A model generated the notes under the pieces. The model was not told the DNA's origin. It saw only the letters and a program-made list of their open reading frames with translations, and did not search any database. A stretch of DNA of 64,000 nucleotides from the NCBI GenBank assembly GCA_964519225.1, contig CAZFJK010000002.1, forward strand, positions 1-64,000, written 5' to 3'. The translations under genes and the position numbers were made by a program. The first letter of the stretch is position 1. Each line of letters opens with the position of its first letter. The stretch comes from an uncultured Methanosarcinales archaeon (lineage in GTDB: Archaea > Nanobdellota > Nanobdellia > Woesearchaeales > B54-G15). Shown piece after piece: positions 3,619-60,414 of this stretch.

Positions 3619-3767
3619 AAAATTTCTTAAACTTCCTCATTAAAACTTTCGTGTCCGAAAATTTTATCGAAAATTTAGCAAAAACTTTAAAAATATGTAA
3701 CTACTTTTGAGAAGAAAAATAATATTTGAATAGAGAATTTAGATTTCAGATTTCGGGGGTGGTATCT

Positions 3768-18547: not shown

Positions 18548-18592
18548 GGGTTCAAAAACGTTTAAATACTTCTTTTTATTCTTGTTTTTTTG

Positions 18593-35693: not shown

Positions 35694-35844
35694 NNNNNNN
35701 NNNNNNNNNNNNNNNNNNNNNNNNNNNNNNNNNNNNNNNNNNNNNNNNNNNNNNNNNNNNNNNNNNNNNNNNNNNNNNNNNNNNNNNNNNNNNTCAAGAA
35801 ACTTTTTTAAACTATGTGAGAATAATAGTTTAAGAGGATATTCG

Positions 35845-37977
35845 ATGAAAAAAAGAGGTCAGATTACATTATTCATTGTGCTAGGTATAGTTATATTACT
35901 TGTAATTGGCTTGTTCTTTTTTATCAGAGCAAGAATTGCTGAAAAAAAATTATTGGAAAGACCTGCTATAGAATTACCTAACGAGCTGAAACCTGTTCAG
36001 TTCTTTGCAGAACAATGCCTTGAAAAAGTTGCTGTTGACGGTTTTAAATTGATTGGTGCTCACGGAGGCTATATTAATCCTGATGCTGTCGGAAAGTTTG
36101 ACTATGATGCGCAAACAGAAAGCGATGGTTTGATGCTTTCTCCGAACGGTTTAAAAGTTGTTTATTGGCTTTATAATAAAGCTCTGCCAAACGAAAAGCC
36201 AGAGTTTGCATCTTTAAGGCCAGTGCTGACTAAAAAAGAAGGAAGGAATTCTATTGAAGAGCAAGTTGAACAGTATATTGAGCATCACATTGATGAATGT
36301 TTTGGCGACTTTGAGCAATTTACTGAGAAAGGATTTAAGATTCAGCTAAAAGGAAAACCTGATGCAAAAGTTGTTATTTTACCGCAGAAAGTTATTATTC
36401 ATCTTGACTACGGTATTGAAATCGCGCTTGGTGAAATAAGCAGCAAATTGGATCATTTGTATAGAGAATTGGATATCGATATTAAAGGAATGTATGACAT
36501 GGCAAGATTTATCACGGAACTTGAAACTAATTATACGTTCATCGAAGAAAGAATATTGAGTGGAATTGAGACCTTTTCTGATACAACCGTAGAAAATCTA
36601 CCGCCAATGGACGAAAGTGAATTTGAACTTGCTCCTACTGCTGTTTGGCTGGAGAGTGATGTTAAAGAGGGAATCAAGCAATTAATGATAGGATATGTTC
36701 CGTTATTTAGATTAGAGGCACCAAACAAGTTCGATGTTAATTTCAAAGATGCGACGACTAAAGCATTTTATGATAACTTTTTGATTCCCGTCAAAAGCAA
36801 ATATGCAGTAAGATTCGATTATCTTGGATGGCCTTTTTACTTTGATGTAAATGACGATGCAGGTTTAATAATGCCAGAACATACGGTGATCAGCAGTGCT
36901 GGCCTGGTTTTTGGGATTCAGCGCTATAAAACTCTGTATGATATTTCTGTTCCGATTTTGATTACACTAACTGATAAAAATGCACTTGGGAAAAAAGGAT
37001 ACAGTTTTAGTTTTGCTATTGAGGCAAACATTAGAAACAATGAGCCAATAAAGCCAGAGAAACCGGTTATGCCCAGTTTAGCGTTCTTTGAAGAAAGCTT
37101 GCTTTGCAGAGAAAACCAAAGAAACAGCGGTGAAATCAGCATTGTAGTGAGTGACGCATATAATAGTGAGTTGCTTCCTAATGTAAGTGTTTTTTATTCT
37201 GTTGGAGAAGAGAGCTGTTTCATTGGAAAGACGGACAGCACAGGATTGCTTAAAGCGAGACTTCCTGTTGCTTTTGGCGGTGTACTTAGCTTTGTGAAAG
37301 ATGGCTATCTGACTGGTTATAAATCCTATGATGCTTTGCCAGAACAATCAGATAAGATTAACATTCGGCTTTACAGAATTGTTGAGCTAAATGCGTCGGT
37401 TGAAAAAAGATTGATTAGAAAAATTACAAAGTCATTTCCGTTCATCAGTGGAAAGGCTTTGGGCGGCTGGCAGTATACTGGAGAAAGTACTTCACTTGAT
37501 GATGTTGAAGAAGCTGTTATTACTTTTAGAAGAATTGGCGATGAAGAAGCTTCTTTTACTTCTGTGTTGAGGCTGAGCGGAAAAAATAGAAGTAGTTTGA
37601 AGCTTGTTCCTGGAGCGTACGAGGTTTCTGGAACACTGATCAGGAATGAGAATCTCACTATTCCAAAAGAAAAGAGATGCATTAAGAAAAAAGTTTTAGG
37701 CGTTACTGTTGGTAAAGAATGTTTTGACATTCCTGCTATTAATCTTGAAAAATTCATAGCCGGAGGTGTTTTGTTTAATAACAATACAGGTTATTTAATC
37801 CTGGATCCTGTGCTTGTTTATAATTCAAAAGAAATTAGATTTTATTTGCTATCACCTGCTTTATACATGGTTGAAGAAAAAGAAAGGAAGGTTGAAGACC
37901 TTGAGCAGCTCGGAAAATTCGAGGAATATACCAAACAGTTTTACGATGATTTATTGCCTGTGCCTGTAGCAAGATGA
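35845..37977 (+). CDS. Large (710 aa) class III signal-peptide surface protein, paralogue A1
   Basis: MKKRG/QITLFIVLGIVILL prepilin-type leader; the provided ORF start (35650) lies beyond the N gap. Confidence 0.8.
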   Translation: MKKRGQITLFIVLGIVILLVIGLFFFIRARIAEKKLLERPAIELPNELKPVQFFAEQCLEKVAVDGFKLIGAHGGYINPDAVGKFDYDAQTESDGLMLSPNGLKVVYWLYNKALPNEKPEFASLRPVLTKKEGRNSIEEQVEQYIEHHIDECFGDFEQFTEKGFKIQLKGKPDAKVVILPQKVIIHLDYGIEIALGEISSKLDHLYRELDIDIKGMYDMARFITELETNYTFIEERILSGIETFSDTTVENLPPMDESEFELAPTAVWLESDVKEGIKQLMIGYVPLFRLEAPNKFDVNFKDATTKAFYDNFLIPVKSKYAVRFDYLGWPFYFDVNDDAGLIMPEHTVISSAGLVFGIQRYKTLYDISVPILITLTDKNALGKKGYSFSFAIEANIRNNEPIKPEKPVMPSLAFFEESLLCRENQRNSGEISIVVSDAYNSELLPNVSVFYSVGEESCFIGKTDSTGLLKARLPVAFGGVLSFVKDGYLTGYKSYDALPEQSDKINIRLYRIVELNASVEKRLIRKITKSFPFISGKALGGWQYTGESTSLDDVEEAVITFRRIGDEEASFTSVLRLSGKNRSSLKLVPGAYEVSGTLIRNENLTIPKEKRCIKKKVLGVTVGKECFDIPAINLEKFIAGGVLFNNNTGYLILDPVLVYNSKEIRFYLLSPALYMVEEKERKVEDLEQLGKFEEYTKQFYDDLLPVPVAR

Positions 37978-40900
37978 AGCATAACTGTATTTGGCGGATC
38001 ATTGCAATGAGCTTAATTGGTTTAGTTATTTCAATCAGCTTTTCTATTGCAGGGGTTTATGCTTCTCTTGAAATAACAAGGAGCAGCGGTTCTGGTAATG
38101 TTGACAATTATTTTGATGGTAAAGGAGATAATTGGATTATTGAAGCTGTTGCCGACCTCGGCGGCAGAACCGTTCAGCCAGAAATGATTACGCTTAGATT
38201 TCCTACTGGCGATGAGCATTTTCAAACATGCGAAAAGCAAAACGAGCATTATGTATGCAGATGGGAAAGCGGTTTTATGACGGCTCCTGAAGGAAGCTAT
38301 TCTGTTGATGCTGTTTTGCATGACCTTGTTTTAGCTGTGGATTATAGTGATAAAGCAGAACTGATTGTTGACGGTTCTAAGCCGAGGATTCATTCTCTGC
38401 AGATAACACAAGAGGGCGGTGAAATTAAAATCGGCATTATAGTTTCTGATAGCAAAATTGTAAATGGCGCTGAAACAAGCAGCGGACTTGACAGAATTGA
38501 AGTTTGGAACGGTGATAATCTTGTTGCAAAGGTTGAAAACATCAGCAGCACTGACTATGAAGGCGACTTAATTGCTGATCTGCCTGAAGGAAGTTTTACG
38601 CAAAATTTCCTGATTAAAGTTTATGATAAAATAGGCCATGTTACTGCTGTTGCAAGCGAGCAATTTGCAGTTGATTTTAGCGTTCCTAAAATTTTGACTG
38701 AAAGCTTTAAGATAGGTGAATTAATTGATTGGGCTCCTTCACAGCCAGGAAAATTTGATATTTCTGTTGAGATTATGGAGGATGAAGGTTTGAGTGAAGT
38801 TGTCGGGGACTTTTCTCAGCTCGGCTTAAGCTCAAATGAAGTAGCTGATAAATGCGAAGAGATTGCTTCTATGCATTTTAAGTGCTATTGGTACAATAGA
38901 TTAGTAAGTTTTCCTGGCAATGTCAGGCTTAAGATAAGCGCAACCGATTTGCGCGGAAATGTTGGTATTGCTTATGTTGAAAGGGCTTTTAAGGTTGATC
39001 AAGCAAGGCCTGTTATATTGTTTGTTGGGAGCGAAGGTTTCTATAACGGAACGAATTATGCAAACAAGAATAGATTGACAAAGTTAATTGCAAGAATACA
39101 AGAGGCAGAAAGCGGAATCTCTGCTGAGAATGTTTTATTTGATGCTGATTATGTTGTAAGCGGCGGAGCTGGAACGCACAAGCGCGTGCATGCTGAAAAT
39201 TGCAGTGAGGTTGAATCCGGCGTGTACGAATGCTATCTTGATATTGCCTTACGAAACTATGGAACTGCTTTTCTAGTTAGCGTAAAAGATAATGCAGGGA
39301 ACAGTGTTTCTGTTGATGAACTTGCGACTCTCGGCAGGATCGAACTTAAGCCGGATGAGGATGCTCCTGTTATTGAAAAAGTAGAGATGAAAGCTACCGC
39401 AGGAATGTACGGAACTGAAAAGGAATATTTTGAAAGCAATGATTTCATTAATTTGCGCGTTTATGTGAAGGATAAGATCGGAGTAAGGTGTTATGCTGAT
39501 CTGAGAAATGTTGTGTTAGGAATAAATGAATATGTTCCTGCAGATGATTGCAGTTTACAGCAAGACGGAAGTTGGCTTTGCGAATGGCTTGGCAAAGGTC
39601 CGATAAGGAGCGGATATGCAAAAGCTTATTATGGGATTAGATGCGAAGATTATGTTGGAAATTATGCAGAGAAGGACGGCGTTATAGAAATACTTGGAAA
39701 AAAGATCGAAACGCATCCTGATTTTTGGAAGACTGTAAGCGTTGAAATGATGCCCTCATTTTTGGACAGAAGCATGACAAAAATAATGAGGAGCAGGGTT
39801 TATTTTGATGCTGAAATACATACAGTAAATCCGAACGTTGAATTCTTGGATGCAAGGTTGAAGGAATGTAAAGGGAAAAGCATTCCTGCTTGCGGCGATG
39901 ATTGTTTGATTGATTATTATATTATTAACAATGTTCCTGGAAGCGAGCATTTTTATATTGTTTTAGAGTTCAAACAATTTGATGCTGAAAATATAGATAT
40001 GCTTCAGTATAACTGCACACTTGAAATCTTCTCTAAGTATGGTGCATTTGCTTTGCAGAATCCAGAAGAAGAAGTTATCCAGCTTGATGTTCCTGTTGGT
40101 GAAAGTAGGATTGGAAGGATAGATACTAATTTAGAAAGGAAAATAGAACGGGTTAAGAAAAGGATTGGTGGAATTTGGAGTAGGATCAGTGATCTAAAAA
40201 AATTCATTGAATGGTCAAAATGGGGTTGTAGGGTGCTTTTTATTTTGGATGTTCCAGTGAGAGCAATTATAGATATTGTTAATAGAAAAAGTGAAGGTGC
40301 AAGAGCATTGCCTGGTGGAGCTGCTATTGCATCTTCGATTTGTTTGTTTAGCGAGCAAACAAAAGAAGAACTTTCGTGGGAACCGGTAAAATGGCTTAAA
40401 CCTTTTTGTTATTTTGTGAGTTGCAGAGGTCCTTGGTATGATAAGTATAAAGATGCGATAGCAAAATTCTTAACAGTTGAAGTAGGAAAAGCAACCGGAG
40501 GGATTAGTTTGCCTTTCACACCAGGAGCGCTTGAAAGAGCAATTGGATTAACTCCAGATCCGTACAGAAGCTTGACTATGGCTGTGGCTATGCTTTGTGT
40601 TCCTGCTATTGTTTATAATCTTGACAAGCTCAGGCAGATTGATTGCAGGTATCTTTATTGTTTGAAAAATGAAGTTCCCGCTGGAATTGTTACAGTACGC
40701 GGATGTAAGGAATTAAGAAGATATATGGCATGTAAATATGTTTGGGGAGAAATATTTGAGTTTATTCCGTTTGTGAAGTTGGTTGATAGAGCTCTTGCTC
40801 TGTTACAAAGTTATTTGAAAGATCCTATTGCAGCATTAAGACTGAGTGCAGCACTTTATTGCAAACAATGGTGTGCTGGCTCAAATATTGGAGCTACTGA

Positions 40901-41009
40901 ATGCAGTATTGCTGCATGGACTTTTGCAATACTCGACTTAATCAATGATATTACTATGCTTGAAAAGGAAGCTAAAAGCATTAAATTTGATTATTGTAGT
41001 ACTATATAA
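37974..41009 (+). CDS. Secreted 1011-aa protein: tandem Ig-like domains with Cys pairs plus a Cys-rich helical C-terminal domain (B1)
   Basis: Signal peptide; repeated D..P.I / V.D..G / C..C.W / D..GN units; ATGA overlap with the upstream gene. Confidence 0.75.
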   Translation: MKHNCIWRIIAMSLIGLVISISFSIAGVYASLEITRSSGSGNVDNYFDGKGDNWIIEAVADLGGRTVQPEMITLRFPTGDEHFQTCEKQNEHYVCRWESGFMTAPEGSYSVDAVLHDLVLAVDYSDKAELIVDGSKPRIHSLQITQEGGEIKIGIIVSDSKIVNGAETSSGLDRIEVWNGDNLVAKVENISSTDYEGDLIADLPEGSFTQNFLIKVYDKIGHVTAVASEQFAVDFSVPKILTESFKIGELIDWAPSQPGKFDISVEIMEDEGLSEVVGDFSQLGLSSNEVADKCEEIASMHFKCYWYNRLVSFPGNVRLKISATDLRGNVGIAYVERAFKVDQARPVILFVGSEGFYNGTNYANKNRLTKLIARIQEAESGISAENVLFDADYVVSGGAGTHKRVHAENCSEVESGVYECYLDIALRNYGTAFLVSVKDNAGNSVSVDELATLGRIELKPDEDAPVIEKVEMKATAGMYGTEKEYFESNDFINLRVYVKDKIGVRCYADLRNVVLGINEYVPADDCSLQQDGSWLCEWLGKGPIRSGYAKAYYGIRCEDYVGNYAEKDGVIEILGKKIETHPDFWKTVSVEMMPSFLDRSMTKIMRSRVYFDAEIHTVNPNVEFLDARLKECKGKSIPACGDDCLIDYYIINNVPGSEHFYIVLEFKQFDAENIDMLQYNCTLEIFSKYGAFALQNPEEEVIQLDVPVGESRIGRIDTNLERKIERVKKRIGGIWSRISDLKKFIEWSKWGCRVLFILDVPVRAIIDIVNRKSEGARALPGGAAIASSICLFSEQTKEELSWEPVKWLKPFCYFVSCRGPWYDKYKDAIAKFLTVEVGKATGGISLPFTPGALERAIGLTPDPYRSLTMAVAMLCVPAIVYNLDKLRQIDCRYLYCLKNEVPAGIVTVRGCKELRRYMACKYVWGEIFEFIPFVKLVDRALALLQSYLKDPIAALRLSAALYCKQWCAGSNIGATECSIAAWTFAILDLINDITMLEKEAKSIKFDYCSTI

Positions 41010-41014
41010 TCGTA

Positions 41015-42616
41015 ATGTTAAAAATGAAAAAGAAAAAAACAAAGGCAAAGACAAAAGAAGTGCGGTGGTTCATTTTGATAGGTATAATTGGTTTATCGGT
41101 AATGCTAACTTTAGTTTCGCTTTCTTTTTCTCAGGAAGAAAAAAGTAAAAATAAAGGTGAAAAAGAGCCACCTATTGATTTGACTAGATATGGTTTTACG
41201 AAGAAAGACTTGGAAGATAGTACTTCATACACTTTAGGCGAGCATTCGTTTGTTTATAGGAATGGGGAATGGTATTATAATGGAAAGAAATGTTCTTTAA
41301 CTTATTTTGATACAGAGCCATATCCTCTGTTCGTGCTACCAGATGGATCTGAGGTTGAAATGCCTAAAGAAGGGAAAGTTATCGTTGCTCATCAAGATAA
41401 GACTCTAGAAGAATATAATTACAGAGAAATGAATGGAAAGTATGTTTTAGAATCAAAAATTAAGTATGATAAACATAAAAGTCCAGTGGCTGGGGAAGAG
41501 CACTTTATCATAAATACAGATTTTTCAAAAGAATATGGAAATGCATTTTACTGGGAATGGGAATATAATGAGAAAACTAAGAAAAGAGAAGGTTATATTT
41601 ATTCTGAAAAAGACGGAAATGTAGTTGGTTATGGCGTAGGAGATGAGCGTTATATTGTTTCTCCTGATTCGTATAAGGTTTTAAGGATGAAGGATAAAAA
41701 GGTAATAGAAAAGTACGAGTATAAGAAAGGAACATGGCGCGATGCCAAAGGAAATGAAGTTAAAGATGAAAATGTTTTGAATGTGTTAAAAGATGTTCAC
41801 AGAGAACGATATTACTACAGATGGCTTACTGGTGAGGTTAGTTTAGGAAAAATCTTAGAAACAGCAGGAGAGATAATTCCTGCTGCAGAAAAAGCACTTA
41901 TGCCAGGACTTAGCGGTTGGATTGGAAAGCAATGGAAGAATTTTAAAGCGTGGCGAGAAACAATCGATGAAAAATTTGCAAAAGCCTGTCTTGGTGAAGA
42001 ATATTGGAAAAGCGAGATATGCGATGCGCATTTGGAAAGATTAAATAAGCAAGGATTAGTTATAGAATCTCCAGCAGGAGAGGTTCAGTTTGTTGCGCAT
42101 GTTGAAGCTGAAAGAAGCAAGCCAATGCCAAAGGAATGTCCTTGCAAAGCTGGTGAAGAATGCATAGGAGGTATCTGCTATAAAGATGGACAGCCGTTAG
42201 TGAAATATTTTTATAAAATTACGTACGGTGTAAGGGCGCCGAGCGATATTGCTTTAACGCCTGAGATTGATGAGAGGGGAGCTATCAGCTTTACGTTGGA
42301 ATTAAAAGGTGAAGTAAACAAATATGCTTATGTTGTTGAAGGCACTCAACAACCGTATTATTTCCATCTTAAGCCTGGTGAGGAGAAATCTGCAGTTGGA
42401 GATAAAGCTTTATTGTTTTTTTCAACGCGAAAATATGATGAGGTTTGTATAAAATTTGGAAAGGAACCAAAGAAAAAATGGAGAGAAATAAAGTATCTTT
42501 GCAATAAAATAGCTGAATCGCAGAGGAGCTATGAGAACTGGCGAGAAGCAGCATTATCTGGTGCAGCTCCAGGAGAAGCACCAACATTAGAACCTGAATT
42601 TAATTCAGATATTTAA
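41015..42616 (+). CDS. Membrane-anchored or secreted hypothetical protein (C1)
   Basis: Basic N-terminus plus one TM; Tyr/Lys/Gly-rich middle; Cys-containing C-terminal domain. Alternative ATG at 41024. Confidence 0.72.
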   Translation: MLKMKKKKTKAKTKEVRWFILIGIIGLSVMLTLVSLSFSQEEKSKNKGEKEPPIDLTRYGFTKKDLEDSTSYTLGEHSFVYRNGEWYYNGKKCSLTYFDTEPYPLFVLPDGSEVEMPKEGKVIVAHQDKTLEEYNYREMNGKYVLESKIKYDKHKSPVAGEEHFIINTDFSKEYGNAFYWEWEYNEKTKKREGYIYSEKDGNVVGYGVGDERYIVSPDSYKVLRMKDKKVIEKYEYKKGTWRDAKGNEVKDENVLNVLKDVHRERYYYRWLTGEVSLGKILETAGEIIPAAEKALMPGLSGWIGKQWKNFKAWRETIDEKFAKACLGEEYWKSEICDAHLERLNKQGLVIESPAGEVQFVAHVEAERSKPMPKECPCKAGEECIGGICYKDGQPLVKYFYKITYGVRAPSDIALTPEIDERGAISFTLELKGEVNKYAYVVEGTQQPYYFHLKPGEEKSAVGDKALLFFSTRKYDEVCIKFGKEPKKKWREIKYLCNKIAESQRSYENWREAALSGAAPGEAPTLEPEFNSDI

Positions 42617-42641
42617 AATATAAAAATGATTAAAAATTAAA

Positions 42642-43388
42642 ATGAAACCAAAATTAAAACTCGCTCTTAAAGAAAGCGTTAAGGATAGCTTTTTGATTTT
42701 TTTACTTTTTGATGCAATTTTCATCGGAATAAATGCTGGTTTAATTTATTTATTTTATTTTAAAATAAAAAGTAAATTGGCTTTTTTCTTCTTGGCGCAA
42801 ACAATCCAACCAGAAAATTTAGAGCAGGTGTATGCATTTTCTCAGCAAATTTCTTCTGCTTTGACCTTCGTTGGAGTTGCTTTTGTCGTGTCTCTAATCG
42901 TTTTGATCTTTTCGCATTCACTCACGCGAACCTTGGCTTGGAATTTGGTAATGAGAAAGAAGCTTGGATTTAGAGCTTTGCATTGGTTAAAATTTACAGC
43001 AATCAGCGTTATTCAAGGGCTTGCATTTATTTTGATAGGTTTTCCATTTGCTTTACCGGCTGCAATTGCTAAATCAGCTACTGTTTTGCTTTTAACTATT
43101 TTGTATGGTTTGCTGTTCTACTTCTTTGCTCTTGTTCAGGCAAACCTTTCAAAATCAGGAAAGATAGGAAAATCATTAGCAAACGGATTTCTGCTTTTTG
43201 ACTGGAAGTTCTGCGGAACAAGCTTAGCAGTATTTTTTGGTATTGGTCTTATATCAACCTTGCTTTCAGCACTTAGAGCGTTAAATTCACCAAACGCTTT
43301 TATACTCGTTACGCTTGTTTTAATATGTTTATACATTTCGTGGATCAAATCGTTTGTGTTTGATCAAATAAGGCAGCTAAAAAAATAA
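42642..43388 (+). CDS. Polytopic membrane protein (about 6 TM)
   Basis: Six hydrophobic segments; lies inside the surface operon. Confidence 0.75.
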   Translation: MKPKLKLALKESVKDSFLIFLLFDAIFIGINAGLIYLFYFKIKSKLAFFFLAQTIQPENLEQVYAFSQQISSALTFVGVAFVVSLIVLIFSHSLTRTLAWNLVMRKKLGFRALHWLKFTAISVIQGLAFILIGFPFALPAAIAKSATVLLLTILYGLLFYFFALVQANLSKSGKIGKSLANGFLLFDWKFCGTSLAVFFGIGLISTLLSALRALNSPNAFILVTLVLICLYISWIKSFVFDQIRQLKK

Positions 43389-43395
43389 AATAAAA

Positions 43396-45258
43396 ATGAA
43401 AAAAAGAGGTCAGATTACGTTATTCATTTTAATAGGCCTAATTATTGTAATTGCGTTCTTTTTACTTTTCTATCTGAAGCAAAAAGAGATCATATTCAAG
43501 CCAAAGCCTCCGCTATTGCCGACTGAATTAGCTCCGTTAGATGCTTATGTAAAGGCATGTATCGAAAAGATAAGCGGTGAAGCTGTAGCTATGATCGGAA
43601 CAACAGGAGGATACATCTATTATCCTGATTTTATTAAGAATGATATGAGTTCTTATCTGCTTATTGCTCCTACAGAGCACGGAATGATGCCTTACTGGAG
43701 AACTTTAGAAGCGTTAAGAATTCCTCCTTTACAGTTTATAGCAGAACAAATGGAAAGATATGTTAATGAGAACTTAAAATCGTGCTTGCAGAACTTCACT
43801 CCTTTTACTGCACAGCACAATATTGTTGAAAAATCAGAGCCAAAGGCAGATGTTGAATTCGGCGATGAAGCTACCTTGGTAAAAGTTGATTACGCGCTTT
43901 CGATCAGCGATAAACAAGGAAGAAAGGTTGCTGATATCGAAGAATTTGAAATTGAACTTCCTTACAGAATCAAGACGATACATCGGATAGCAGAAGAACT
44001 GGTGAAAGCAGAGAATACAAACAAATTTATGGAATATACAGTTATTGACTTGATTGCGCTTGATGAGGATATTCCTTTAAATGGCGTAGAGCTGAGCTGC
44101 AAGAAGAAAAGATGGCGAACCAGCGATGTTGAAAACAAGTTGAAAACATTGATTAGAGTGAATCTTCCGAAGATAAGAGTTGAAAGGACGAGCTATCCTG
44201 ATTTTCCTGCAGATCAGCCTTATCTGGCAAAACATTTTGTTTGGGACCCCTTAAAGCTAAATTATAAGGATTTTAGTATTAGTTTTAGTTTTAATGAAGA
44301 ATGGCCATTTTATTTCTATGCAAGGCCGAATAAAGGCGGCTGGCTTGAAAGCGGAATGCAAAGGATTCAACGCTATTTGCCGTTTGTCTGCATACAAAGC
44401 TGGCAATTCAGCTATGATTTACGCTTTCCGATTATGGTTTCGATTCTGGACAGAAAGAATAATTATCTGTTTTCCTTTGCTTTGGAGCTCGGCATTGAAA
44501 GGAATTATCCTTCTGTTGGAAGTGTTGCAAGTGAAAGCTACAGATTCAGAACAGAAGAGCCGACTGAAGCAGAATACTGCTCGCGAAAGCAAACCCTGAT
44601 GACAATATTCAGCTATGATAATGTTTCAAATAGCTTTTTACCGATTGATGATGTTGAACTTGAATTTACTTGTTTGAAATATACCTGCTCATTAGGTAAA
44701 ACGTCATACGCAAGTGGAGGGGCTGTAGCATTGCTAAAAACATATGTTCCGAAATGTACATACGGGATTCTGAAAGCAAGAAAAGAAGGATATAAAGAGG
44801 GTACTGCCTTTATTTCAACTGAAGTGCCCGGAGAAGTTAGTGTTTATTTAACGCCGATAAAAAAGGTTAAGGTTAAGGTTGTTAAGCACAGGTATGATTT
44901 TGATTCTGGAATGCTCAGTCCTGATGCAGAAGAATTAGGCAGGGATGAGATAGCAAGTATTAATGTAAAAAGAAAAGATCATGAGGCTTATACTGTTTAT
45001 CCTGCAGAATTTAATGAGATTGAATTACTTGCTGAAGATGATTTTACCTATAATATTACCATTCATCTTACTTTAGAGGGTTTGGTGATTGGTGGTTTGC
45101 AAAAGACGATCGAGCTTGAGCGGGATGAACTCAGTCTTGCAAATGAGATTGTTTTCCATGTTGCGTATGCTGATGTAAAAAATGAGGATGATATGTTAAA
45201 GTTAATGAGCTTACTGCCTGAAATATCGGAATCAGTACCTTTGCCTGAATTAAGATGA
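43396..45258 (+). CDS. Large (620 aa) class III signal-peptide surface protein, paralogue A2
   Basis: MKKRG/QITLFILIGLII; shares LP.EL.P, C.EK, IG..GGYI, WPFYF, YD...PI, FSFA.E..I..N.P with 35845-37977. Confidence 0.82.
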   Translation: MKKRGQITLFILIGLIIVIAFFLLFYLKQKEIIFKPKPPLLPTELAPLDAYVKACIEKISGEAVAMIGTTGGYIYYPDFIKNDMSSYLLIAPTEHGMMPYWRTLEALRIPPLQFIAEQMERYVNENLKSCLQNFTPFTAQHNIVEKSEPKADVEFGDEATLVKVDYALSISDKQGRKVADIEEFEIELPYRIKTIHRIAEELVKAENTNKFMEYTVIDLIALDEDIPLNGVELSCKKKRWRTSDVENKLKTLIRVNLPKIRVERTSYPDFPADQPYLAKHFVWDPLKLNYKDFSISFSFNEEWPFYFYARPNKGGWLESGMQRIQRYLPFVCIQSWQFSYDLRFPIMVSILDRKNNYLFSFALELGIERNYPSVGSVASESYRFRTEEPTEAEYCSRKQTLMTIFSYDNVSNSFLPIDDVELEFTCLKYTCSLGKTSYASGGAVALLKTYVPKCTYGILKARKEGYKEGTAFISTEVPGEVSVYLTPIKKVKVKVVKHRYDFDSGMLSPDAEELGRDEIASINVKRKDHEAYTVYPAEFNEIELLAEDDFTYNITIHLTLEGLVIGGLQKTIELERDELSLANEIVFHVAYADVKNEDDMLKLMSLLPEISESVPLPELR

Positions 45259-48200
45259 ATAAAAGAAAGAAAAAACTGGTTTGTGCATGGATTTTAGTAT
45301 TGATTATTTGTATGCCGTTTGGTTTTGCTCAGGTAAAGACGCAGCTAACATTAGAGTTGAATGTTCCTGCTTATGTTAATGAGCGGTACATTGATGTTAC
45401 AGGCAGCACAGAGCAAAATGCTGTTGTTGAACTTTGGCTGAACGGAAAGCTCGCAAGAAAAACTACATTTCCGGATGGAAATATTATATTTTACGATGTT
45501 GCACTCGAGCCGAATACTGCAAATGTTATTGTTGTTAAATCATTTGCTCTTGGGTTAAGTGCGGAAAAACAGGTTACTGTTTTTTGTGATCTGGTAAAGC
45601 CTGCTCTAACGCTTGCAGAACTACCTTTGGTAACGAAAGAGCAAAAGGTAACTGTTTCTGGAAATGTCTCTGAAAGTGCAGATATTGAGATTTTTTTAGG
45701 CGGAAACAGTGTTTTTAAAGCAGAGAACGTTCAATCGTTTTCAAAGGATGTTGTGCTTGAAGAAGGTGAAAATACTTTACTGATTACTGCTGTAGATAAA
45801 GCAGGAAACAAAGAAGAGATTTCCCATACTGTAGTTAAAGATACAAAGCCGCCAAAGATAGAAAAGCTTTATCCTGAAAGCGGTGCTTTTTACTATGAAG
45901 GTAAGGCTATTGATGATGTAAAAGGAAAAACAGAACCATTTGCTAGCGTTAAGCTTTATGTTATCTTTACTGAAGACGGTAAAGAAAAAAGAGAACTCGT
46001 GGCCGAAACAAAAGCAGATGTTGAAGGCAATTTCAAATTTGAAGATGTGAACTTTCAGAATCCAAAAAGAGGAATAAGCTTCTCTATCTGGGAATTCCGC
46101 GTTGGCGTTGGTGGAGAAGCAGGTATTGAGGAAGTAGCACCCGGAGAGGAAACAGAGGAATGGTATGAGCAGAAAGTAATTAGCGCAAGGTTTGTTGTTG
46201 TTGCCGAAGATGCTGTAAAACATAGGACTGAAAAACAATTTACTATCGGCATTGGAACGTGCTGGAGTGGAGCATTCAAGTTTGACATTGATGTTTTGCC
46301 AGAATATGTTTTACCTACCCTGCTCAGTCCTGAAAGATTGGCCGAAGGAACAGAAAGAATAAGCTTTGTAATGAATGTGAGCTATGTTGGTGGAAAGCCT
46401 AAAGGCGATTGGCAGATTGTTGATGTAAGAATTGATCATGCCTGCGGCAGAAGTCTTGCTCAGCTTGCAAAGGAATATGAAGACGATCCGCGATACGAAA
46501 TTGCTTGTGAAATGCTGAAGAGGGTTCCGCATCCGCATAAGGACAGCAATCGGGCTAAAACCCTTTGGTATGTTGAATTCAAGAATATGTATTCTAAAGA
46601 ATTTGAGGAGCTGGTAAATCTTAAATGGGACGAGCTGAAAAAGAAATTAAGGTTTAATCAATTGATCTTTCCGCTTAGGGTTACTATAGCATATAGGGAA
46701 AAGGAAGAAAAGGTTGTTGATGGCAAGCTGAGAAAGGTTTTTGGTCCTGTGAAATATCAAACAAAATGTATTTCTGTTGCTTATTTTGTTGATTTTCCTG
46801 TTGATCCAAGAGATGTGTGGCCTGACTGGTTGATAAATGACGGCATAAAATTTGCAAACAAAACTGTAAGCGCAATAAACAAAATAATGCCATATGTCGA
46901 TAAAACAGTTATGAGTGTTGGTGCTGCATGCATAGGAAGCATGCTCGGAAGGTTTGCTGTGAAAGTAATAAGAAAAGCTGTTTGTGCATGGGAAAGCTGG
47001 GCTGGAAGAGTTATGCAAAGCAAAGAAAGACAGTGTCCTAGTGCAGCAAAACGAATGGAATTAGACGATACCGCATTAAAAACACAATGTCCGCTCTGTG
47101 CAAATTGGTGGAATATTGAAAGCAAACTGTATGTTCCGTACAGGCTTACCTGCGATAGGATTTTCTGTCATAGGGCTCCTGCTGGCTGGACTGCATTCCC
47201 GACTCCAGCTAGCGAAATAGCAATGGCAAAAGCAAGCCAGCTTTTCTGCGGCCTTGAAGAAAAGTTAGGAATAACGCCTTTGAGAAAATTAAAATGGGAT
47301 GCTGTGGAGGAAGAGGTATCGCTTACTCTGAAGAACCTTACACCTATAGGAGGTAAGGGACCAGAATATGTGTATGAATATAAGTTTGCATATTATGCTC
47401 CTGATCCCGAAAAGAAAAATAAATTAGTGAGAATTGCGCAAAGAAGTGACGTAATTACCGATGCACCTGAAACGCTTACGGTTGAAAAAATAGGCGATAC
47501 TTATGGAACTGCCATTGATAGAAAATGTGATGAGATGTGTAAGGATTTCTTTGGAAAGGATTTTGAAGGGCGATGTGCAGAAGAAAAAAGCTGTGCCGAA
47601 GCAGGTAATTATCCTATAGGATATTCTAGAGATTGTTTTCCGAAACAGAAAAGCGTATGTTGTTGCGAATTGCCAGAAAAAGAGCGTGCAAAAAAAGAAG
47701 CGGAGAAAAAGAAACTTTGTCCTGCTAATAAGCTGTGGAATTACAGGACGCAGCAGCTTTACAGGGAAACAAAAGGAAAGTTCGGCTGCAAGTATCCAGA
47801 TGATAGGTATTATCGTGGGCGCGATATATATGCCTGTGCAGGAATGGATCATCTTTTTGATTATTTAGGATTACATCCAACAAAGGCTCCTATTTTAGAT
47901 CCAAAAGACCATATGGTTGCCGTGCAATGTGTATGCTTAACAGGAATAAGGGCGCGACTTGTTCTGCTGAGAAATATAATGACTGGTTTAATGAATTGTT
48001 TAGAGCAAGTGAAAACAACAGGAAAAGCTAATGCAGGTGTATGCAAAGAATTGTTTGCAATGTATTTCTGCGATCTTCTGTATCAGGTCTTTGTTGCATT
48101 TGAAAAGGGATGCATAACTCTGCCTTTCGGAGTTAAGGCTAGAGTTTTGCCCGGAGTTGGAAAAGTAGAATACAATGTTGAAGGAGAGTTTGCTGAGCTT

Positions 48201-49706
48201 GGAGCCGCACTCAAATTTGGAACAAAATCTTTGTTTGAGAGCATACTCGAATTAGGCAGAGATTTAGAAGATGAATACGGAGAAACTGTTTTCAGCAATC
48301 TACTTACCGGCGGAAGCAGGGAGATATCAAGAAAGATCTGTCTTGCAGCTCTCGGCTTTGATGTTGGGTTTGATATGAGAAACTTATTAGATGTTGGTTA
48401 TACGACGCAGTTTAAAACTACTGCTGAAGTTTTTTCTGCAAGAAGGGATTTCCTTACTTATAATCCTGCTACTGGAATTCCGACTTATGAATATAGAGCA
48501 AGCTGGGTCATATTCCCAGGCTGCGATATTGAAAGCTATATTGTTGATCTGGTCTGCGTGAATATGGAGGAAAAAGCAAAATATAGAGGTATTGATTGCA
48601 GCGCTGTTAATGATCTGCAGCATGGAGAAGCTACAAAAGGATGTAATTGCTTGTATTCAACTGAGCCTTACAGTGGAAGAAGCAGAAGGTTTTACGTTAG
48701 CAGAGGACCGATTAAAGCTGGCAGTTTTGTTGAGGAAGCGGCTCATGCTGTAATAGAAGATTCAAAGAGGTATGATCATATAAGAATAAAGATTAATCTT
48801 AAGCCTGGATTTTCTCCTGATAAATGCTTTCCTGAAGGACATAAAGACGGTGTTTTCTTTTTCCCGATAGTAGATAAAACAGCAAGGGATTTGCTTGATT
48901 GTTTCGTTGATCAAAAGGGAATAATGAAATGCACGAGAGGCATTGAATGGGAACAGAAAGGCGATGCCTACTTTATGCCGTTCAGCAAAGAAGAATGCAA
49001 AAGCGAGAAGAAATGCTATTTCTTATGCAGGAAAGGTAGCGAATGGAAGGATTGCGATATTGTAAAATATAGCGTAGCAGAACCGATTAATGTTAAAGTA
49101 AGGGTTGCGCAGAAAAGAGATCAGTGTTTGTTTGCGAAATTTACAACGCATACCGGCAAGGAAAAGCTCGCTAAGTTTTACAAAATACAGACTCAGCTTA
49201 CTACAGACGAATACTTTACAAGAGATGCTGTTATAAATTTAGGCATAGCATCGGCTGCCGATTTTCCCAAGGTTGAATATGGATTTGAAAAGGTATGTAA
49301 AAATATGTCGCTCGAAAGAGAAGAGAATCTTGATAAGGATAAATATGAAGAGAAAGGAATCTTAACTTTAAGAAAAAGCAACAGTATGTTTAGAGTTAAT
49401 ATTTCGTCTGGCGAACTATTGCTGAATGGAAACCGAACAGATAAAAGAACATTTACTGAATCCGAATTTAAGAATGTTGTATGGCGTATTGGCGGTTTTG
49501 CATTTAAGCCAAAACTGAATTTAAATGCTTTCTCTGGAAAATGCAATGTTAGTGTTGTACGGACAAAAAAGGAATATCCGTTTAATTTAAAACTTGAACT
49601 TAGATATCCTGATTCAGATATGCAATGCGATGCTGATGCAAAAGAGGTTATTTATAGTCCTCTTGGATTGACCGAGTTGCAGCAGAGTATAGCAATTCAA
49701 CGTTAA
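45255..49706 (+). CDS. Giant (1483 aa) secreted Cys-rich protein with N-terminal bacterial Ig-like domains (B2)
   Basis: Signal peptide; Ig-like units (LEEGENTLLITAVDKAGN..DTKPP); dozens of Cys; ATGA overlap with the upstream gene. Confidence 0.78.
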   Translation: MNKRKKKLVCAWILVLIICMPFGFAQVKTQLTLELNVPAYVNERYIDVTGSTEQNAVVELWLNGKLARKTTFPDGNIIFYDVALEPNTANVIVVKSFALGLSAEKQVTVFCDLVKPALTLAELPLVTKEQKVTVSGNVSESADIEIFLGGNSVFKAENVQSFSKDVVLEEGENTLLITAVDKAGNKEEISHTVVKDTKPPKIEKLYPESGAFYYEGKAIDDVKGKTEPFASVKLYVIFTEDGKEKRELVAETKADVEGNFKFEDVNFQNPKRGISFSIWEFRVGVGGEAGIEEVAPGEETEEWYEQKVISARFVVVAEDAVKHRTEKQFTIGIGTCWSGAFKFDIDVLPEYVLPTLLSPERLAEGTERISFVMNVSYVGGKPKGDWQIVDVRIDHACGRSLAQLAKEYEDDPRYEIACEMLKRVPHPHKDSNRAKTLWYVEFKNMYSKEFEELVNLKWDELKKKLRFNQLIFPLRVTIAYREKEEKVVDGKLRKVFGPVKYQTKCISVAYFVDFPVDPRDVWPDWLINDGIKFANKTVSAINKIMPYVDKTVMSVGAACIGSMLGRFAVKVIRKAVCAWESWAGRVMQSKERQCPSAAKRMELDDTALKTQCPLCANWWNIESKLYVPYRLTCDRIFCHRAPAGWTAFPTPASEIAMAKASQLFCGLEEKLGITPLRKLKWDAVEEEVSLTLKNLTPIGGKGPEYVYEYKFAYYAPDPEKKNKLVRIAQRSDVITDAPETLTVEKIGDTYGTAIDRKCDEMCKDFFGKDFEGRCAEEKSCAEAGNYPIGYSRDCFPKQKSVCCCELPEKERAKKEAEKKKLCPANKLWNYRTQQLYRETKGKFGCKYPDDRYYRGRDIYACAGMDHLFDYLGLHPTKAPILDPKDHMVAVQCVCLTGIRARLVLLRNIMTGLMNCLEQVKTTGKANAGVCKELFAMYFCDLLYQVFVAFEKGCITLPFGVKARVLPGVGKVEYNVEGEFAELGAALKFGTKSLFESILELGRDLEDEYGETVFSNLLTGGSREISRKICLAALGFDVGFDMRNLLDVGYTTQFKTTAEVFSARRDFLTYNPATGIPTYEYRASWVIFPGCDIESYIVDLVCVNMEEKAKYRGIDCSAVNDLQHGEATKGCNCLYSTEPYSGRSRRFYVSRGPIKAGSFVEEAAHAVIEDSKRYDHIRIKINLKPGFSPDKCFPEGHKDGVFFFPIVDKTARDLLDCFVDQKGIMKCTRGIEWEQKGDAYFMPFSKEECKSEKKCYFLCRKGSEWKDCDIVKYSVAEPINVKVRVAQKRDQCLFAKFTTHTGKEKLAKFYKIQTQLTTDEYFTRDAVINLGIASAADFPKVEYGFEKVCKNMSLEREENLDKDKYEEKGILTLRKSNSMFRVNISSGELLLNGNRTDKRTFTESEFKNVVWRIGGFAFKPKLNLNAFSGKCNVSVVRTKKEYPFNLKLELRYPDSDMQCDADAKEVIYSPLGLTELQQSIAIQR

Positions 49707-55976: not shown

Positions 55977-57389
55977 TTATCTCTTTCTCAAAAGCCTTTG
56001 CAAGTCCTTCAAATCAAAGCAATAAACAGGCTTACCTTCATAACTTTTTATTTTTTTACTAAAACTTTTTGCAAAAATTGCAAAACTTTCCTTTCTTTTT
56101 TTCTTATGCCAATCCACATAGCTTAGCTTCTCGTTTAATTCCTTAACAACCTTCTCAGCATTGACCCTGCCTTGCCATTTGCATTCGCATGCAAGAATTT
56201 CTTTGGTTTTCTCGTTGATAGCGAGAACGTCTATTTCATAAGTATTTTCTCCCTTTGGCTTTCCTTTAATTTTTCCCCACTGCTTGCCGACAGAATCGGC
56301 ATCAAAGAGTTTAAGTTCTTTAATTATTTCTGCACATATCAGTTCGAATCTTTTTCCTATGTATGATGAAATATTTTCTTTTGTCTTTTTTATAAACTCT
56401 GGATTCCTTTGTTTATAAAGAGACAAATTCTTGTAAAAATGCCTGAACCAAAAATTCATTAAAGAATTTTTTATGTACATTATTCTCTTGTTTCCGCAGA
56501 CCTGCTTTTCATACTCGACCATCTCAAAATATTCTACAAGCTCTTTTACGTATCTCGTTAGTTCAGTTTGCTTTACAGAAAGAAATGATGCGATTTTGGC
56601 TAATGTGTTTCTTCCCGAAGCAATAGCGACTAGAATATCGTAATATCTTCCTTTTCTTTTTCCGAACTCTAAAGCAAGGATTTTTTCGACTTCATCTTCA
56701 AATATTGCATTTTCTCTAAAGAAGAAAGATTCCATTATTTCTTCAAATCCTTTTCCAACGAGCCCTTCATCTTCTATTGCTACCCAATATAATGGAAAGC
56801 CACCGAATATAACATACAACTTAATTATATCTTCAAAATCTAATTTCAATAAATCACCCATTTCCATAATATCAAGCAATGATAGTGGTTTAAGATTTAG
56901 CTTTCTTTTTATTCTACCATACAAAGGCTCTCTGTTATCCTCAAACGTTCTTTTGATCAAGCCAATCAAAGAGCCACAGAACACGATTAACAAGTCTTTT
57001 CTCTCTTCATATCCGTCTATGAAATTCTGCAATGTTCCAAACACAGATGGATCTACATTAAAAAAATTCTGGAATTCATCGAAAACTACGATTCCTTTAT
57101 ACCTTTCAAATATTATTTTAAAGAAGTCATCCCAATTTCTTAATATCTCCAGTTCTGAAATTAATTTATTTTCCCTCAAAACCTCTTGAAAATCTCTTAG
57201 CAAGCCTATAGAGCTTTTGTTTTTATTAACAAAAAAATACAAAGATTTTCCTTTTGTAAATTCCTTGATCAATCTTGTTTTACCGACCCTCCTCAGTCCA
57301 AAAACAACTAAAGTAAACAGTTTTCTTTTACTAAGCTGTCTTGTATCTTCTAAATAAGTAAGTTCTTTTCTTCTATTTATGAATTTCAT
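55977..57389 (-). CDS. Archaeal ATPase (ATPase_2 / COG1672) with wHTH and C-terminal DUF234 PD-(D/E)xK domain
   Basis: FINRRKEL, GLRRVGKT, VFDEFQ, CGS, PLYGR, GGFP, EIDVL...ECKW. Confidence 0.92.
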   Translation of the reverse strand: MKFINRRKELTYLEDTRQLSKRKLFTLVVFGLRRVGKTRLIKEFTKGKSLYFFVNKNKSSIGLLRDFQEVLRENKLISELEILRNWDDFFKIIFERYKGIVVFDEFQNFFNVDPSVFGTLQNFIDGYEERKDLLIVFCGSLIGLIKRTFEDNREPLYGRIKRKLNLKPLSLLDIMEMGDLLKLDFEDIIKLYVIFGGFPLYWVAIEDEGLVGKGFEEIMESFFFRENAIFEDEVEKILALEFGKRKGRYYDILVAIASGRNTLAKIASFLSVKQTELTRYVKELVEYFEMVEYEKQVCGNKRIMYIKNSLMNFWFRHFYKNLSLYKQRNPEFIKKTKENISSYIGKRFELICAEIIKELKLFDADSVGKQWGKIKGKPKGENTYEIDVLAINEKTKEILACECKWQGRVNAEKVVKELNEKLSYVDWHKKKRKESFAIFAKSFSKKIKSYEGKPVYCFDLKDLQRLLRKR

Positions 57390-57392
57390 TTT

Positions 57393-57425
57393 TATACACC
57401 AATTGTATTATACAGTTGGTGTATA
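57393..57425. promoter_or_regulatory. 33-bp palindromic operator between the TATA box and start codon of the ATPase
   Basis: TATACACCAATTGTA-TTA-TACAGTTGGTGTATA (arms match 14/15), equivalent to two TATACA-N5-TGTAT units. Confidence 0.75.
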
Positions 57426-57469
57426 TATATAAACTTTTCGTTTCTTAAAAAAGATGCTTTGTTGCATGA

Positions 57470-57748
57470 TTAATACAACTTAAGACCTTTAGTATTTACT
57501 GTAAACACAAAATATTTTGCTTTATATTTCTTAAGAATATCTAACACTTTCTTTTGATCTCTAATCTTAACAATAAGAACTTCTTTTGAAAGTCTTAGAT
57601 GAGGCATCTTTTTTAGAACACCCTCTCTTTTATAGAAATATTTACCTTTATTTGAATGATCAGTATATCCAAATAAAGCTCTATTCACTAAAACTTTTTG
57701 ATAATGGTTGAGATTTGATAAATTATACACTATTAATTTTGCTTTCAT
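57470..57748 (-). CDS. Small basic hypothetical protein
   Basis: MKAKLIVYNL...RALFGY...YKREGVL; clean ORF between genes. Confidence 0.65.
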   Translation of the reverse strand: MKAKLIVYNLSNLNHYQKVLVNRALFGYTDHSNKGKYFYKREGVLKKMPHLRLSKEVLIVKIRDQKKVLDILKKYKAKYFVFTVNTKGLKLY

Positions 57749-57813
57749 AATTTTCATCACAAAAAAAGAATAAATTTTTTAAATTAGAGTTGGTTCGTTA
57801 TTGGGGTCGATGG

Positions 57814-57865
57814 ATAAACTGGCAAATTTGCTGGTTTATGCCGGAGACAGCAAATAGCTGTCTCC
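57814..57865 (+). promoter_or_regulatory. Twin-hairpin 5' leader of rps15 (candidate ribosomal-protein leader)
   Basis: ATAAACTGGC-AAATTT-GCTGGTTTAT and GGAGACAGC-AAATA-GCTGTCTCC upstream of SD AGGTGA. Confidence 0.55.
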
Positions 57866-57891
57866 TTCTAAGTTTGAGTAGGTGAAGAAAA

Positions 57892-58344
57892 ATGGCAAGA
57901 ATGCATTCAAGGAAAAAAGGAAAAAGCGGTTCAAAAAGACCAGTGCGAAAAGGAGAACCTTCATGGTTACGTTATTCAAAGCAAGAAGTGGAAATGTTGA
58001 TTGTAAAACTTGCGAAAGAAGGTAATCCACCATCTAAAATAGGGCTTTTATTAAGAGATATCTATGGGATTCCTGATGTTAAAGCAATAATTGGAAAAAG
58101 GCTAACAGCGTTTTTAGCAGAGAAAGGACTAGCACAAAAAATTCCTGAAGATTTGCTCGCTTTAATTAAAAAGAGTTTAGCAATAAGAAAGCATTTAGAA
58201 AAACACAAAAAGGATCGGACAGCAAAGAGAGGATTGATTCTTACAGATAGTAAGATTTTTAGATTGTCAAAATACTATAAGCGTGTTGGGAAACTTCCAG
58301 CTAATTGGAAGTATGAGCCGGATAAACCTCGCCTTTATATATAA
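57892..58344 (+). CDS. rps15: 30S ribosomal protein uS15 (archaeal S15/S13e)
   Basis: MARMHSRKKGKSGS, IGLLLRDIYGIPDV, IPEDL, RLSKYYK. Confidence 0.98.
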   Translation: MARMHSRKKGKSGSKRPVRKGEPSWLRYSKQEVEMLIVKLAKEGNPPSKIGLLLRDIYGIPDVKAIIGKRLTAFLAEKGLAQKIPEDLLALIKKSLAIRKHLEKHKKDRTAKRGLILTDSKIFRLSKYYKRVGKLPANWKYEPDKPRLYI

Positions 58345-58345
58345 A

Positions 58346-59737: not shown

Positions 59738-59774
59738 GTGGGATAAAAATTAAAAAAAATAAAATTAGAAAAGT

Positions 59775-60353
59775 TTATTCTGTTGTGCTTTCAGTAGTGC
59801 CGGTTTCTTCGGCTGTTTCTTCGGTCGTTTCTTCTTTCGTTGGTGCGTACTCTTCACAATTAAATCTGTATTTGTGACGCTCTCCATTTACTTTCACTAC
59901 AATGAAAATTCTTGGAGTTACCCGATTGTTTCCGTTTAGGTTTATGCATTTGGTGCTTTCTCCTGGTGCCAATTCAATTTTTTCACAGCCAGGGTTGTCA
60001 ACTGGGTATTTGCCGAAATAATCTATTTTAATATCATCACCAATAGTAAGGCTTTTGTCGTAAATGTTAGTTAATGTTGCCTCAATAACTCCCTTTGTTT
60101 CATCACACACAAAATCTGATAATAGTTCTGTTGGGGTTTCTGCTGTTGTTTCCTCAGGCATTTCAGTCTCTGCTGGAGTTTCTGTCTCTGGCGTTTCTGG
60201 CGCTGGTGTTGTTGGTTCTTCTGTTGGTACTTCTGGAGTTTCTGTTTCTGGCATTTCTGTCTCTGGCGCTGTTATTTCTTCAGCTGATTTACAACCGAAT
60301 AAAAGCACACCAGCTAATGCAAGAATACTCAAAATCAAAACCTCTTTTTTCAT
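59775..60353 (-). CDS. Lipoprotein with Glu/Thr/Pro-rich linker
   Basis: LLFGC lipobox; PETEMPETETPE repeats; four-Cys globular domain. Confidence 0.78.
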   Translation of the reverse strand: MKKEVLILSILALAGVLLFGCKSAEEITAPETEMPETETPEVPTEEPTTPAPETPETETPAETEMPEETTAETPTELLSDFVCDETKGVIEATLTNIYDKSLTIGDDIKIDYFGKYPVDNPGCEKIELAPGESTKCINLNGNNRVTPRIFIVVKVNGERHKYRFNCEEYAPTKEETTEETAEETGTTESTTE

Positions 60354-60414
60354 TTTCCTTTCACCTACATTGGGAAAATATTAAACTTATTTATAAAATT
60401 TTAGTAAATTCTTC

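Follow-up and report, generated by a model that had tools for sequence, protein, structure and literature searches.

Among 51 protein families common to Woesearchaeota and Pacearchaeota, the main-text passages of one report describe fam00969, whose giant members reach ~3000 amino acids (aa), carry a lytic-transglycosylase domain and are proposed to attach to bacterial walls (PMC8204110). 'Large lytic murein transglycosylases' are reported from metagenome-assembled genomes (MAGs) of Woesearchaeota in an excerpt of a second study (PMC9723730), and a third, also in excerpt, describes peptidoglycan hydrolases as prominent in Nanoarchaeota (PMC12352652). We analyzed a 64,000-nucleotide stretch of DNA (hereafter the window; GenBank contig CAZFJK010000002.1, positions 1 to 64,000) from a Woesearchaeota-type archaeon, in which six tightly packed co-oriented open reading frames (ORFs), in the order A1-B1-C1-TM-A2-B2, occupy positions 35845-49706 of the + strand. 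Our favored explanation, to which we give about an even chance, is that this locus is a tandem duplicate of a cell-surface module, A-B-TM, that serves contact with a partner cell, probably a bacterial one.

The B proteins very probably belong to the fam00969 family or overlap with it. As far as the main text of PMC8204110 describes them, the fam00969 giants come from the same lineages as B, fall in the same size class (to ~3000 aa) and share its predicted extracellular location. The SLT domain also occurs in 6 of 24 B proteins from loci with a single module and in two homologs of B2, whereas B1 and B2 of the window carry none. What sets the B family apart is its defining feature, a cysteine-rich helical core with an array of immunoglobulin (Ig)-like domains rather than an enzyme. 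The original prediction, made from the letters of the window, recognized no named system at this locus. This stands in that the literature searched, which included the main-text passages of PMC8204110 without its Supplementary Table 3, holds no description of the module, the pilin-like A, the invariant cysteine hub or the duplication; it needs correction for the B family, which matches the fam00969 giants as those passages present them.

A second likeness is with the SlaA/SlaB S-layer of the Sulfolobales (8qox), in which a stalk anchored in the membrane and an outer protein that is giant and rich in Ig domains are likewise encoded by adjacent genes. However, A is anchored at its N-terminus rather than its C-terminus, and the structural match is to one generic domain. 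The bindosome of Sulfolobus consists of solute-binding proteins with class III signal peptides that are processed by PibD. Like these, A is a large globular ectoprotein with a pilin-type N-terminus and is not a classical pilin, but it lacks a solute-binding-protein domain (Pfam scan) and is paired with a giant and a membrane protein. In the tip complexes of type IV pili, PilY1/PilC is a large non-pilin adhesin found with minor pilins. There too, a class III-leader protein is encoded beside a large Sec-exported adhesin-like protein. The modular pilin PilB of S. sanguinis resembles A in having a large extra domain after its pilin-type N-terminus, as described in part of the source (PMC8179133). 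In contrast to pilus tips and modular pilins, the A-B pair shows no pilin-fold module, no PilY1 beta-propeller, no match to a pilin hidden Markov model (HMM) and no linked assembly genes in the window, and A, at 600-700 aa, has an unexplained alpha/beta domain. Finally, the type IV pili of episymbiotic Saccharibacteria, in the portion of the source we draw on (PMC11623550), offer a likeness in ultrasmall host-dependent cells that bind their hosts by pilins; however, these organisms are bacteria, their pili are canonical, and no homology to the module was found.

All six ORFs of the locus were found as the original prediction had placed them, on the + strand. The start codon of B1 overlaps the stop codon of A1 in an ATGA at the A1/B1 junction, and a second such overlap, also noted originally, joins A2 and B2. 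The remaining intergenic gaps in the block are 5, 25 and 7 nucleotides (nt). A run of 100 N at 35694-35793 lies 51 nt upstream of the A1 start and leaves the genes untouched, although it makes the promoter region of the operon unreadable. Scans of the six proteins against Pfam, NCBIfam and PHROGs yield no family above cut-off. What they do return is Ig-type Pfam matches just short of the cut-off on B2 and one PHROG of unknown function on its Ig part.

A1 (710 aa, 35845-37977, + strand, module 1) and A2 (620 aa, 43396-45258, + strand, module 2) are predicted to be membrane-anchored ectoproteins with a signal of the class III kind. Both begin MKKRGQITLFI, and the similarity along their length that had been seen by eye is confirmed by BLASTP (2e-37, with 26% identity across ~500 residues). 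A [KR][GA]Q-type site before a hydrophobic stretch is the class III (prepilin-peptidase) signal pattern, as in the substrates of PibD and EppA. In A1 the signal or anchor is encoded at 35845-35925 (+ strand) and consists of MKKRGQ and a hydrophobic helix at residues 9-27, the protein's only N-terminal hydrophobic helix; each A protein has a single one. The pattern, with at least 14 hydrophobic residues after [KR][GA]Q, is found in 74 of 82 A-family proteins, in agreement with the earlier reading of KRG/Q as a class III signal. Five of the eight that miss it retain the glutamine with S or N-A before it, and Q6 is invariant in two A-family alignments. A2 has 45 database homologs, on none of which is there a functional name, and a sequence search of the PDB with A returned one designed protein only.

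The AlphaFold 2 model of A2 has a predicted local distance difference test (pLDDT) score of 88.5. It places a transmembrane helix at residues 3-29 and, after a stretch at 33-37 where pLDDT falls below 50, starts another helix at 43-69. The parts modeled after this low-confidence linker are a long helix, an alpha/beta region extending to ~380 and two beta-sandwiches. The first of these, at 397-492, is transthyretin/CnaB-like and matches 3e8v and 5aq0 (VIA Z 10.4, root-mean-square deviation (rmsd) 1.9 over 78-79 residues).

B1 (1011 aa, 37974-41009, + strand) and B2 (1483 aa, 45255-49706, + strand) both carry signal peptides, and their relatives span 1002-2854 aa. The original view of the locus as one of surface proteins is supported. 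The model of B1 (pLDDT 85.3) consists of a signal helix followed by ~7 Ig-like beta-sandwich domains to residue 710, mostly with pLDDT above 90. Residues 712-1011 (40107-41006, + strand) form a C-terminal, cysteine-rich domain that is all-helical in the model (pLDDT 50-90). Eight cysteines of this domain (C752, C812, C817, C875, C891, C896, C911 and C920) are invariant in 73 sequences. B2 contains Ig-like repeats, a conserved cysteine-rich core at residues 500-1110 (46752-48584, + strand), which includes a Cys-helix motif at ~880-940, and a cysteine-rich C-terminal region. The core shows many invariant Cys, Trp and Arg columns among 18 sequences. Searching the PDB with the B2 sequence gives only Ig/FN3 matches (Bap, 7dm0, 4e-8). 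A profile search of a library of 1.84 billion proteins places 1215 cluster representatives in the B1 family at E<=1e-30, while B2 has 37 database homologs, the named ones being MAGs of Woesearchaeota or Nanoarchaeota.

Homology between B1 and B2 is supported, with a pairwise signal that is weak. BLASTP yields 0.002 for an Ig repeat and 0.032 for the Cys-helix, and phmmer finds no match between the two proteins. In contrast to these pairwise results, an hhalign comparison of 8 B1 sequences with 18 B2 sequences gives a probability of 96.9% and an E-value of 1.5e-10 over 513 colinear columns, spanning the Ig repeats and continuing into the first long helix. Sub-alignments of the Cys-helix alone reach E 8.9e-5 with a probability of 59.5%. 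Additionally, HMMs derived separately from the Cys-helix of B1 and of B2 converge independently on a single site in the distant B proteins that other orders encode in single modules. The two cysteine motifs quoted in the original prediction are present in the translations, and the relationship it proposed, with both Ig repeats and a Cys-patterned helical domain in common, is borne out at the profile level. The same cannot be said of its description of the proteins as disulfide-rich, which is drawn from the conserved cysteines: VKOR was not found in the genome, and the only thioredoxin-like match, to thioredoxin_4, is below cut-off.

The TM gene (248 aa, 42642-43388, + strand) encodes a polytopic membrane protein with ~6 hydrophobic helices. 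The family is without a Pfam match in any of 20 members. The TM that follows C1 is homologous to the TM proteins that follow B2 in related loci or a single B in more distant ones (hhalign probability 98.9%, E 1.3e-17), and the ancestral unit is therefore, on the evidence of these alignments, the three-gene module A-B-TM, of which TM is the third member. The gene between B1 and TM, C1 (533 aa, 41015-42616, + strand), encodes a predicted signal-anchored protein without a Pfam family and is the extra gene of module 1. Positional orthologs of C1 are found in 5 of 6 same-order loci (phmmer E 1e-3 to 3e-13). The idea that C1 is a split-off piece of B was rejected, as hhalign gives a probability below 2% against both B1 and B2.

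The order A1-B1-C1-TM-A2-B2 is found in all six loci compared within the order to which the window belongs, and a further TM gene follows B2 in four of them. Five of the six were picked for having two A matches 8-9 kilobases apart, and the sixth comes from a complete genome with one listed match. In four loci from other orders, one A is followed by one B of ~2000-2165 aa, with a small TM protein next in three. We further considered 20 other-order loci taken from the top of the A hit list, and in all 20 A is directly followed on the same strand by an ORF of 1002-2854 aa. The Cys-helix HMMs match in 13 of these 20, and the TM family follows in 9. Across other orders, A is thus directly followed by a giant ORF in 24 of 24 loci, so that the synteny check proposed with the original prediction gives a giant B after A both there and in the 6 of 6 loci from the same order.

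A quick maximum-likelihood tree of 38 A proteins recovers an A1 clade with support of 100 and an A2 clade with support of 99. These two clades join each other at 94 (Shimodaira-Hasegawa-like approximate likelihood ratio test) and are separate from the single-module A proteins; the tree comes from a quick search only and its root is arbitrary. The order to which the window belongs carries the module as a tandem duplicate, [A1-B1-C1-TM][A2-B2-(TM2)], with C1 added to copy 1 and TM2 lacking from the window. TM is the sole gene of its family found in the window's own genome, which is 97% complete, and TM2 is therefore missing there. The duplicated unit of A and B in the original prediction is conserved across the order, with the amendments that it also includes a TM gene and stems from an A-B-TM module present throughout the class. 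Its two paralogous arms are likewise upheld, since A1 and A2, B1 and B2, and, in relatives, TM1 and TM2 are each homologous.

The A-B-TM module is specific to, and nearly universal in, archaea of the Woesearchaeota and Pacearchaeota types. A profile built from 26 A proteins matches 371 of 401 sampled genomes of the phylum, representing 261 of 281 genera. This sample includes six unpublished genomes (G322, G244, G243, G396, G333 and G360); when these are left out, A is found in 366 of 395. B1-type proteins are present in 75 of 101 genomes of the window's order, taken as one per genus. The window itself is contig C2 of an 869-kilobase assembly. Its nearest public record, the one found in a search with A2 alone, is 94% identical. 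This record and the homologs are labeled Woesearchaeota or Nanoarchaeota MAGs, which agrees with the DPANN cell envisaged originally.

The near universality of the module, together with its adjacent genes for a membrane-anchored subunit and a secreted, Ig-rich giant, would also fit a housekeeping role in the envelope. The pair would then form a second surface layer or a stalk and canopy like SlaB and SlaA, maintaining the integrity of the cell itself, with the enzymes found on some relatives as lineage-specific add-ons. The beta-sandwich of A does align with SlaB (8qox_B, Z 9.2, rmsd 2.1 over 84 residues). However, this match is to one common transthyretin-like domain and is one among many with equal scores. 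The genome additionally encodes a separate protein of an S-layer family, 780 aa in length with a signal peptide (C12:12281-14623, L059), which scores 49.4 bits with the PF05124 model (S-layer like family, outer domain; cut-off 23.9) and is likely, from this match, to be the S-layer protein of the organism; the Pfam scan returned no S-layer family model for any of the six proteins of the locus. Peptidoglycan hydrolases, moreover, have no substrate in the archaeon's own envelope. We regard the housekeeping explanation as doubtful.

Alternatively, A might be a minor pilin of modular build that undergoes cleavage by the prepilin peptidase and takes its place in the tip of a type-IV-like filament, where it would present B as a non-pilin adhesin or lysin in the manner of PilY1. 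The invariant Q at +1 of the class III-type motif is what such a pilin would show, and several pilus-related genes are present in the genome. A Peptidase_A24 protein, scoring 50-53 bits where the cut-off is 26.5, is encoded at G000:C4:15178-16023. On contig C26 (32-5951, L072), an intein that contains a LAGLIDADG endonuclease domain interrupts the gene for a 1259-aa secretion/pilus ATPase of the T2SSE type, and next to this gene lies a 712-aa ORF with a hydrophobic C-terminus that may encode a platform protein. Contig C3 has a cluster at 56563-60752 (L073) of at least six ORFs for small proteins of 87-244 aa, which are candidate pilins; their N-termini are class III-like (KKGQ, RKGQ, KRGQ, KKGA and similar), and they have no Pfam match.

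A third, divergent module is located on the minus strand of contig C3 (3409-16833, L038). Its A-like protein is 659 aa long (MRRAQITIFIVLG) and matches the first 155 residues of A1 by phmmer at 4e-8. The order at this locus is a 1039-aa Cys-rich secreted protein, the A-like protein, an overlapping 1876-aa giant, 4-5 small ORFs with KAQ and hydrophobic N-termini, a 90-aa Cys-rich protein, and an ABC transporter made up of an ATPase and an ABC-2 permease. The giant contains CarboxypepD_reg and fn3 domains and has a hydrophobic segment at residues 1742-1760, near its C-terminus. The succession of an A-like gene, a giant and small KAQ ORFs resembles a minor-pilin operon joined to an A/B-like pair, and this likeness keeps the pilus-tip explanation alive. 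In the window, a 154-aa ORF at 18590-19054 (+ strand) that starts MMNKKGISALLATLLLLGVAVGLGVLV has a pilin- or archaellin-like N-terminus and no Pfam match.

On the other side, A1 and A2 match no curated model of a pilin or archaellin N-terminus, with no pilin family found in Pfam at E<=1 and nothing in NCBIfam at E<=0.1. The A2 model suggests that a separate domain comes after the transmembrane helix and the low-pLDDT linker at 33-37, where a pilin head would be expected to pack on a continuous helix. The flanks of the locus in the window contain no ATPase, platform or small-pilin gene, and the T2SSE ATPase and Peptidase_A24 genes lie on contigs other than the window's; the neighbors at other loci were screened with the A, B and TM profiles only. 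No PilY1/PilC-type beta-propeller is found by Pfam in B1 or B2, and the C-terminal domain of B1 is all-helical in its model. In addition, the part of one survey considered here describes type IV filament systems as not being widespread among DPANN (PMC13705601). We keep the pilus association of the original prediction, for which the class III-type motif is the only ground, as tentative, and we consider the pilus-tip explanation unlikely.

Enzymatic domains on relatives of B provide the clue to a role in contact. The 24 other-order single-module B proteins include six with SLT, one with Peptidase_M15_4 and two with a calcineurin-like phosphoesterase (Metallophos); none was detected in the remaining 15. 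Peptidoglycan-hydrolase domains (SLT or M15) are therefore present in 7 of 24. The 37 homologs of B2 include two with SLT (P0063 and P0066), one with VanY/M15 and one with a trypsin-like peptidase (Trypsin_2). The hydrolase domains sit at varying positions within the proteins. The B giants of L050 and L052 contain the calcineurin-like phosphoesterase, and in that of L055 the C-terminus combines SLT with DUF2272 and a GDSL hydrolase. The phosphoesterase and GDSL additions indicate that the repertoire is wider than peptidoglycan cleavage. An archaeal envelope offers peptidoglycan hydrolases nothing to cleave, so these domains point to the walls of bacteria. With wall hydrolases on 7 of the 24 B proteins from single modules, and on several close homologs of B2, a role in contact is plausible. 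To this extent the host-contact apparatus suggested originally finds support in the SLT and M15 domains.

The variety of these additions (SLT, M15, trypsin-like, GDSL and metallophosphoesterase) could also be accounted for if B were a scaffold displayed on the surface for scavenging, whose hydrolases free sugars, peptides or phosphate from dead bacterial wall with no specific partner involved. Products of bacterial wall turnover have been proposed as food for Pacearchaeota, in the portion of the literature cited here (PMC11537232). However, most of the B proteins examined, including both in the window, lack an enzyme domain, and the conserved parts of the family are the Ig array and the helical hub rather than catalytic domains. 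We give this explanation little credence.

Several results weigh against the contact explanation that we favor. B1 and B2 of the window have no hydrolase domain, SLT included, in the Pfam scan, and since 15 of 24 single-module B proteins also lack one, the conserved core function cannot be wall lysis itself. The helical hub of B1 (residues 712-1011) has no fold match: whole-model searches by Foldseek and VIA are dominated by the beta-sandwich domains and match only Ig/FN3 arrays, and the best score in a search of the ESM Atlas with residues 700-1011, 0.79, is not informative. Similarly, the alpha/beta domain of A (~40-380) has no fold or family match, in Foldseek and VIA-align searches that used the whole A2 model and were filled by beta-sandwich matches. 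The presence of Peptidase_A24 in 363 of 371 genomes with A does not discriminate, given that 387 of all 401 genomes encode it, or 381 of 395 once the six unpublished ones are set aside.

The evidence for contact between A and B belongs with these points. Translational coupling and strict adjacency across the class make an A-B complex likely beforehand. For complex prediction, A1 30-530 was paired with B1 705-1011; the domains were chosen by guess, since the conserved parts of each protein were expected to touch. The prediction scores 0.34 (0.35, 0.34 and 0.15 in separate runs) compared with 0.01 for the best control, with a partner pLDDT of 51-58 and agreement between runs in at least 58% of contacts. 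Of 157 solved complexes, 116 reach the mark used for such predictions, as do 2 of 215 mismatches; at scores of 0.60 or less, only 18 solved complexes and both of the passing mismatches reach it. The modeled interface thus lends weak support to a contact between A and B.

The explanation based on partner contact starts from the three proteins. A is an ectoprotein of 600-700 aa held by one N-terminal hydrophobic helix behind its conserved [KR][G/A]Q class III-type site. B, translationally coupled to A, is a giant exported by Sec, with a variable Ig-like array and a conserved helical hub that has eight invariant cysteines, and TM is small and polytopic. According to this explanation, A would be trimmed by the prepilin peptidase of the genome and would either stay anchored or join a short type-IV-like fiber. 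The conserved alpha/beta domain of A may hold the hub of B, while the Ig array would project B outward from the cell. In many lineages B would bear a hydrolase directed at the bacterial wall or envelope (SLT, M15, trypsin-like, GDSL or metallophosphoesterase), and from such hydrolase-bearing B proteins we infer that the complex contacts, and in some lineages opens, the envelope of a partner. As B1 and B2 have no recognisable enzyme, they would act only as adhesins or spacers in the organism of the window. The duplication would have occurred in the ancestor of the window's order, with copy 1 then gaining C1 and the lineage of the window losing TM2.

A more ambitious version, which we judge quite improbable, makes A-B-TM the host-contact and feeding apparatus of Woesearchaeota and Pacearchaeota. 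Pilin-like A, on a TM platform, would mount B at the cell surface or on a short fiber of the type-IV-like kind, and the hub of B, stapled by its cysteines and active on membranes, would reach the membrane of the partner after lytic domains specific to each lineage had opened the wall. If this were true, most such archaea would have bacterial partners, and the two arms of the duplicated locus would represent two specificities.

Large, fast-evolving and unannotated genes in a compact block might also be the structural genes of an integrated virus or mobile element. The surroundings of the locus speak against this. Upstream lie genes for an H+-pyrophosphatase, Nre, Hsp20, DJ-1, an HhH-GPD glycosylase and Nramp, and downstream those for DUF1385, an AlaX-like protein, an XPD-type helicase, ribosomal protein S15 and a DHH-family protein (PF01368/PF02272), all ordinary genes of an archaeal chromosome. 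The only PHROG match is the one of unknown function on the Ig part of B2, the G+C content is even across the window with the locus included, and the family occurs in 371 of 401 genomes in conserved order. Based on this distribution, the genomic context, the PHROG scan and the base composition, we rejected a viral or mobile origin, whose chance we consider close to negligible.

Elsewhere in the window, positions 299-3175 (+ strand) encode a protein of 958 aa in which a Ser/Thr protein kinase is fused to many TPR repeats. Nearby, at 3726-5720 (+ strand), is the gene for a surface protein of 664 aa that has a signal peptide, cadherin-like and Big_9 domains and, at its C-terminus, a hydrophobic anchor. 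Besides the run upstream of A1 (35694-35793, 100 nt), runs of N are located at 15904-15913 (10 nt) and 20488-20587 (100 nt); all three look like masked sequence or gaps in the scaffold.

Woesearchaeota and Pacearchaeota rank with the most widespread of the uncultured archaea. The giant 'transglycosylase' proteins already in print are now tied to a defined three-gene module that is present in about nine-tenths of the sampled genomes. With its pilin-type anchor and its helical hub of invariant cysteines, the module offers concrete and conserved targets for experiment, and the alpha/beta domain of A and the hub of B are folds without explained relatives so far. That domains for degrading walls are scattered among the B proteins speaks for bacteria, and not other archaea, as the cells with which many of these organisms deal.

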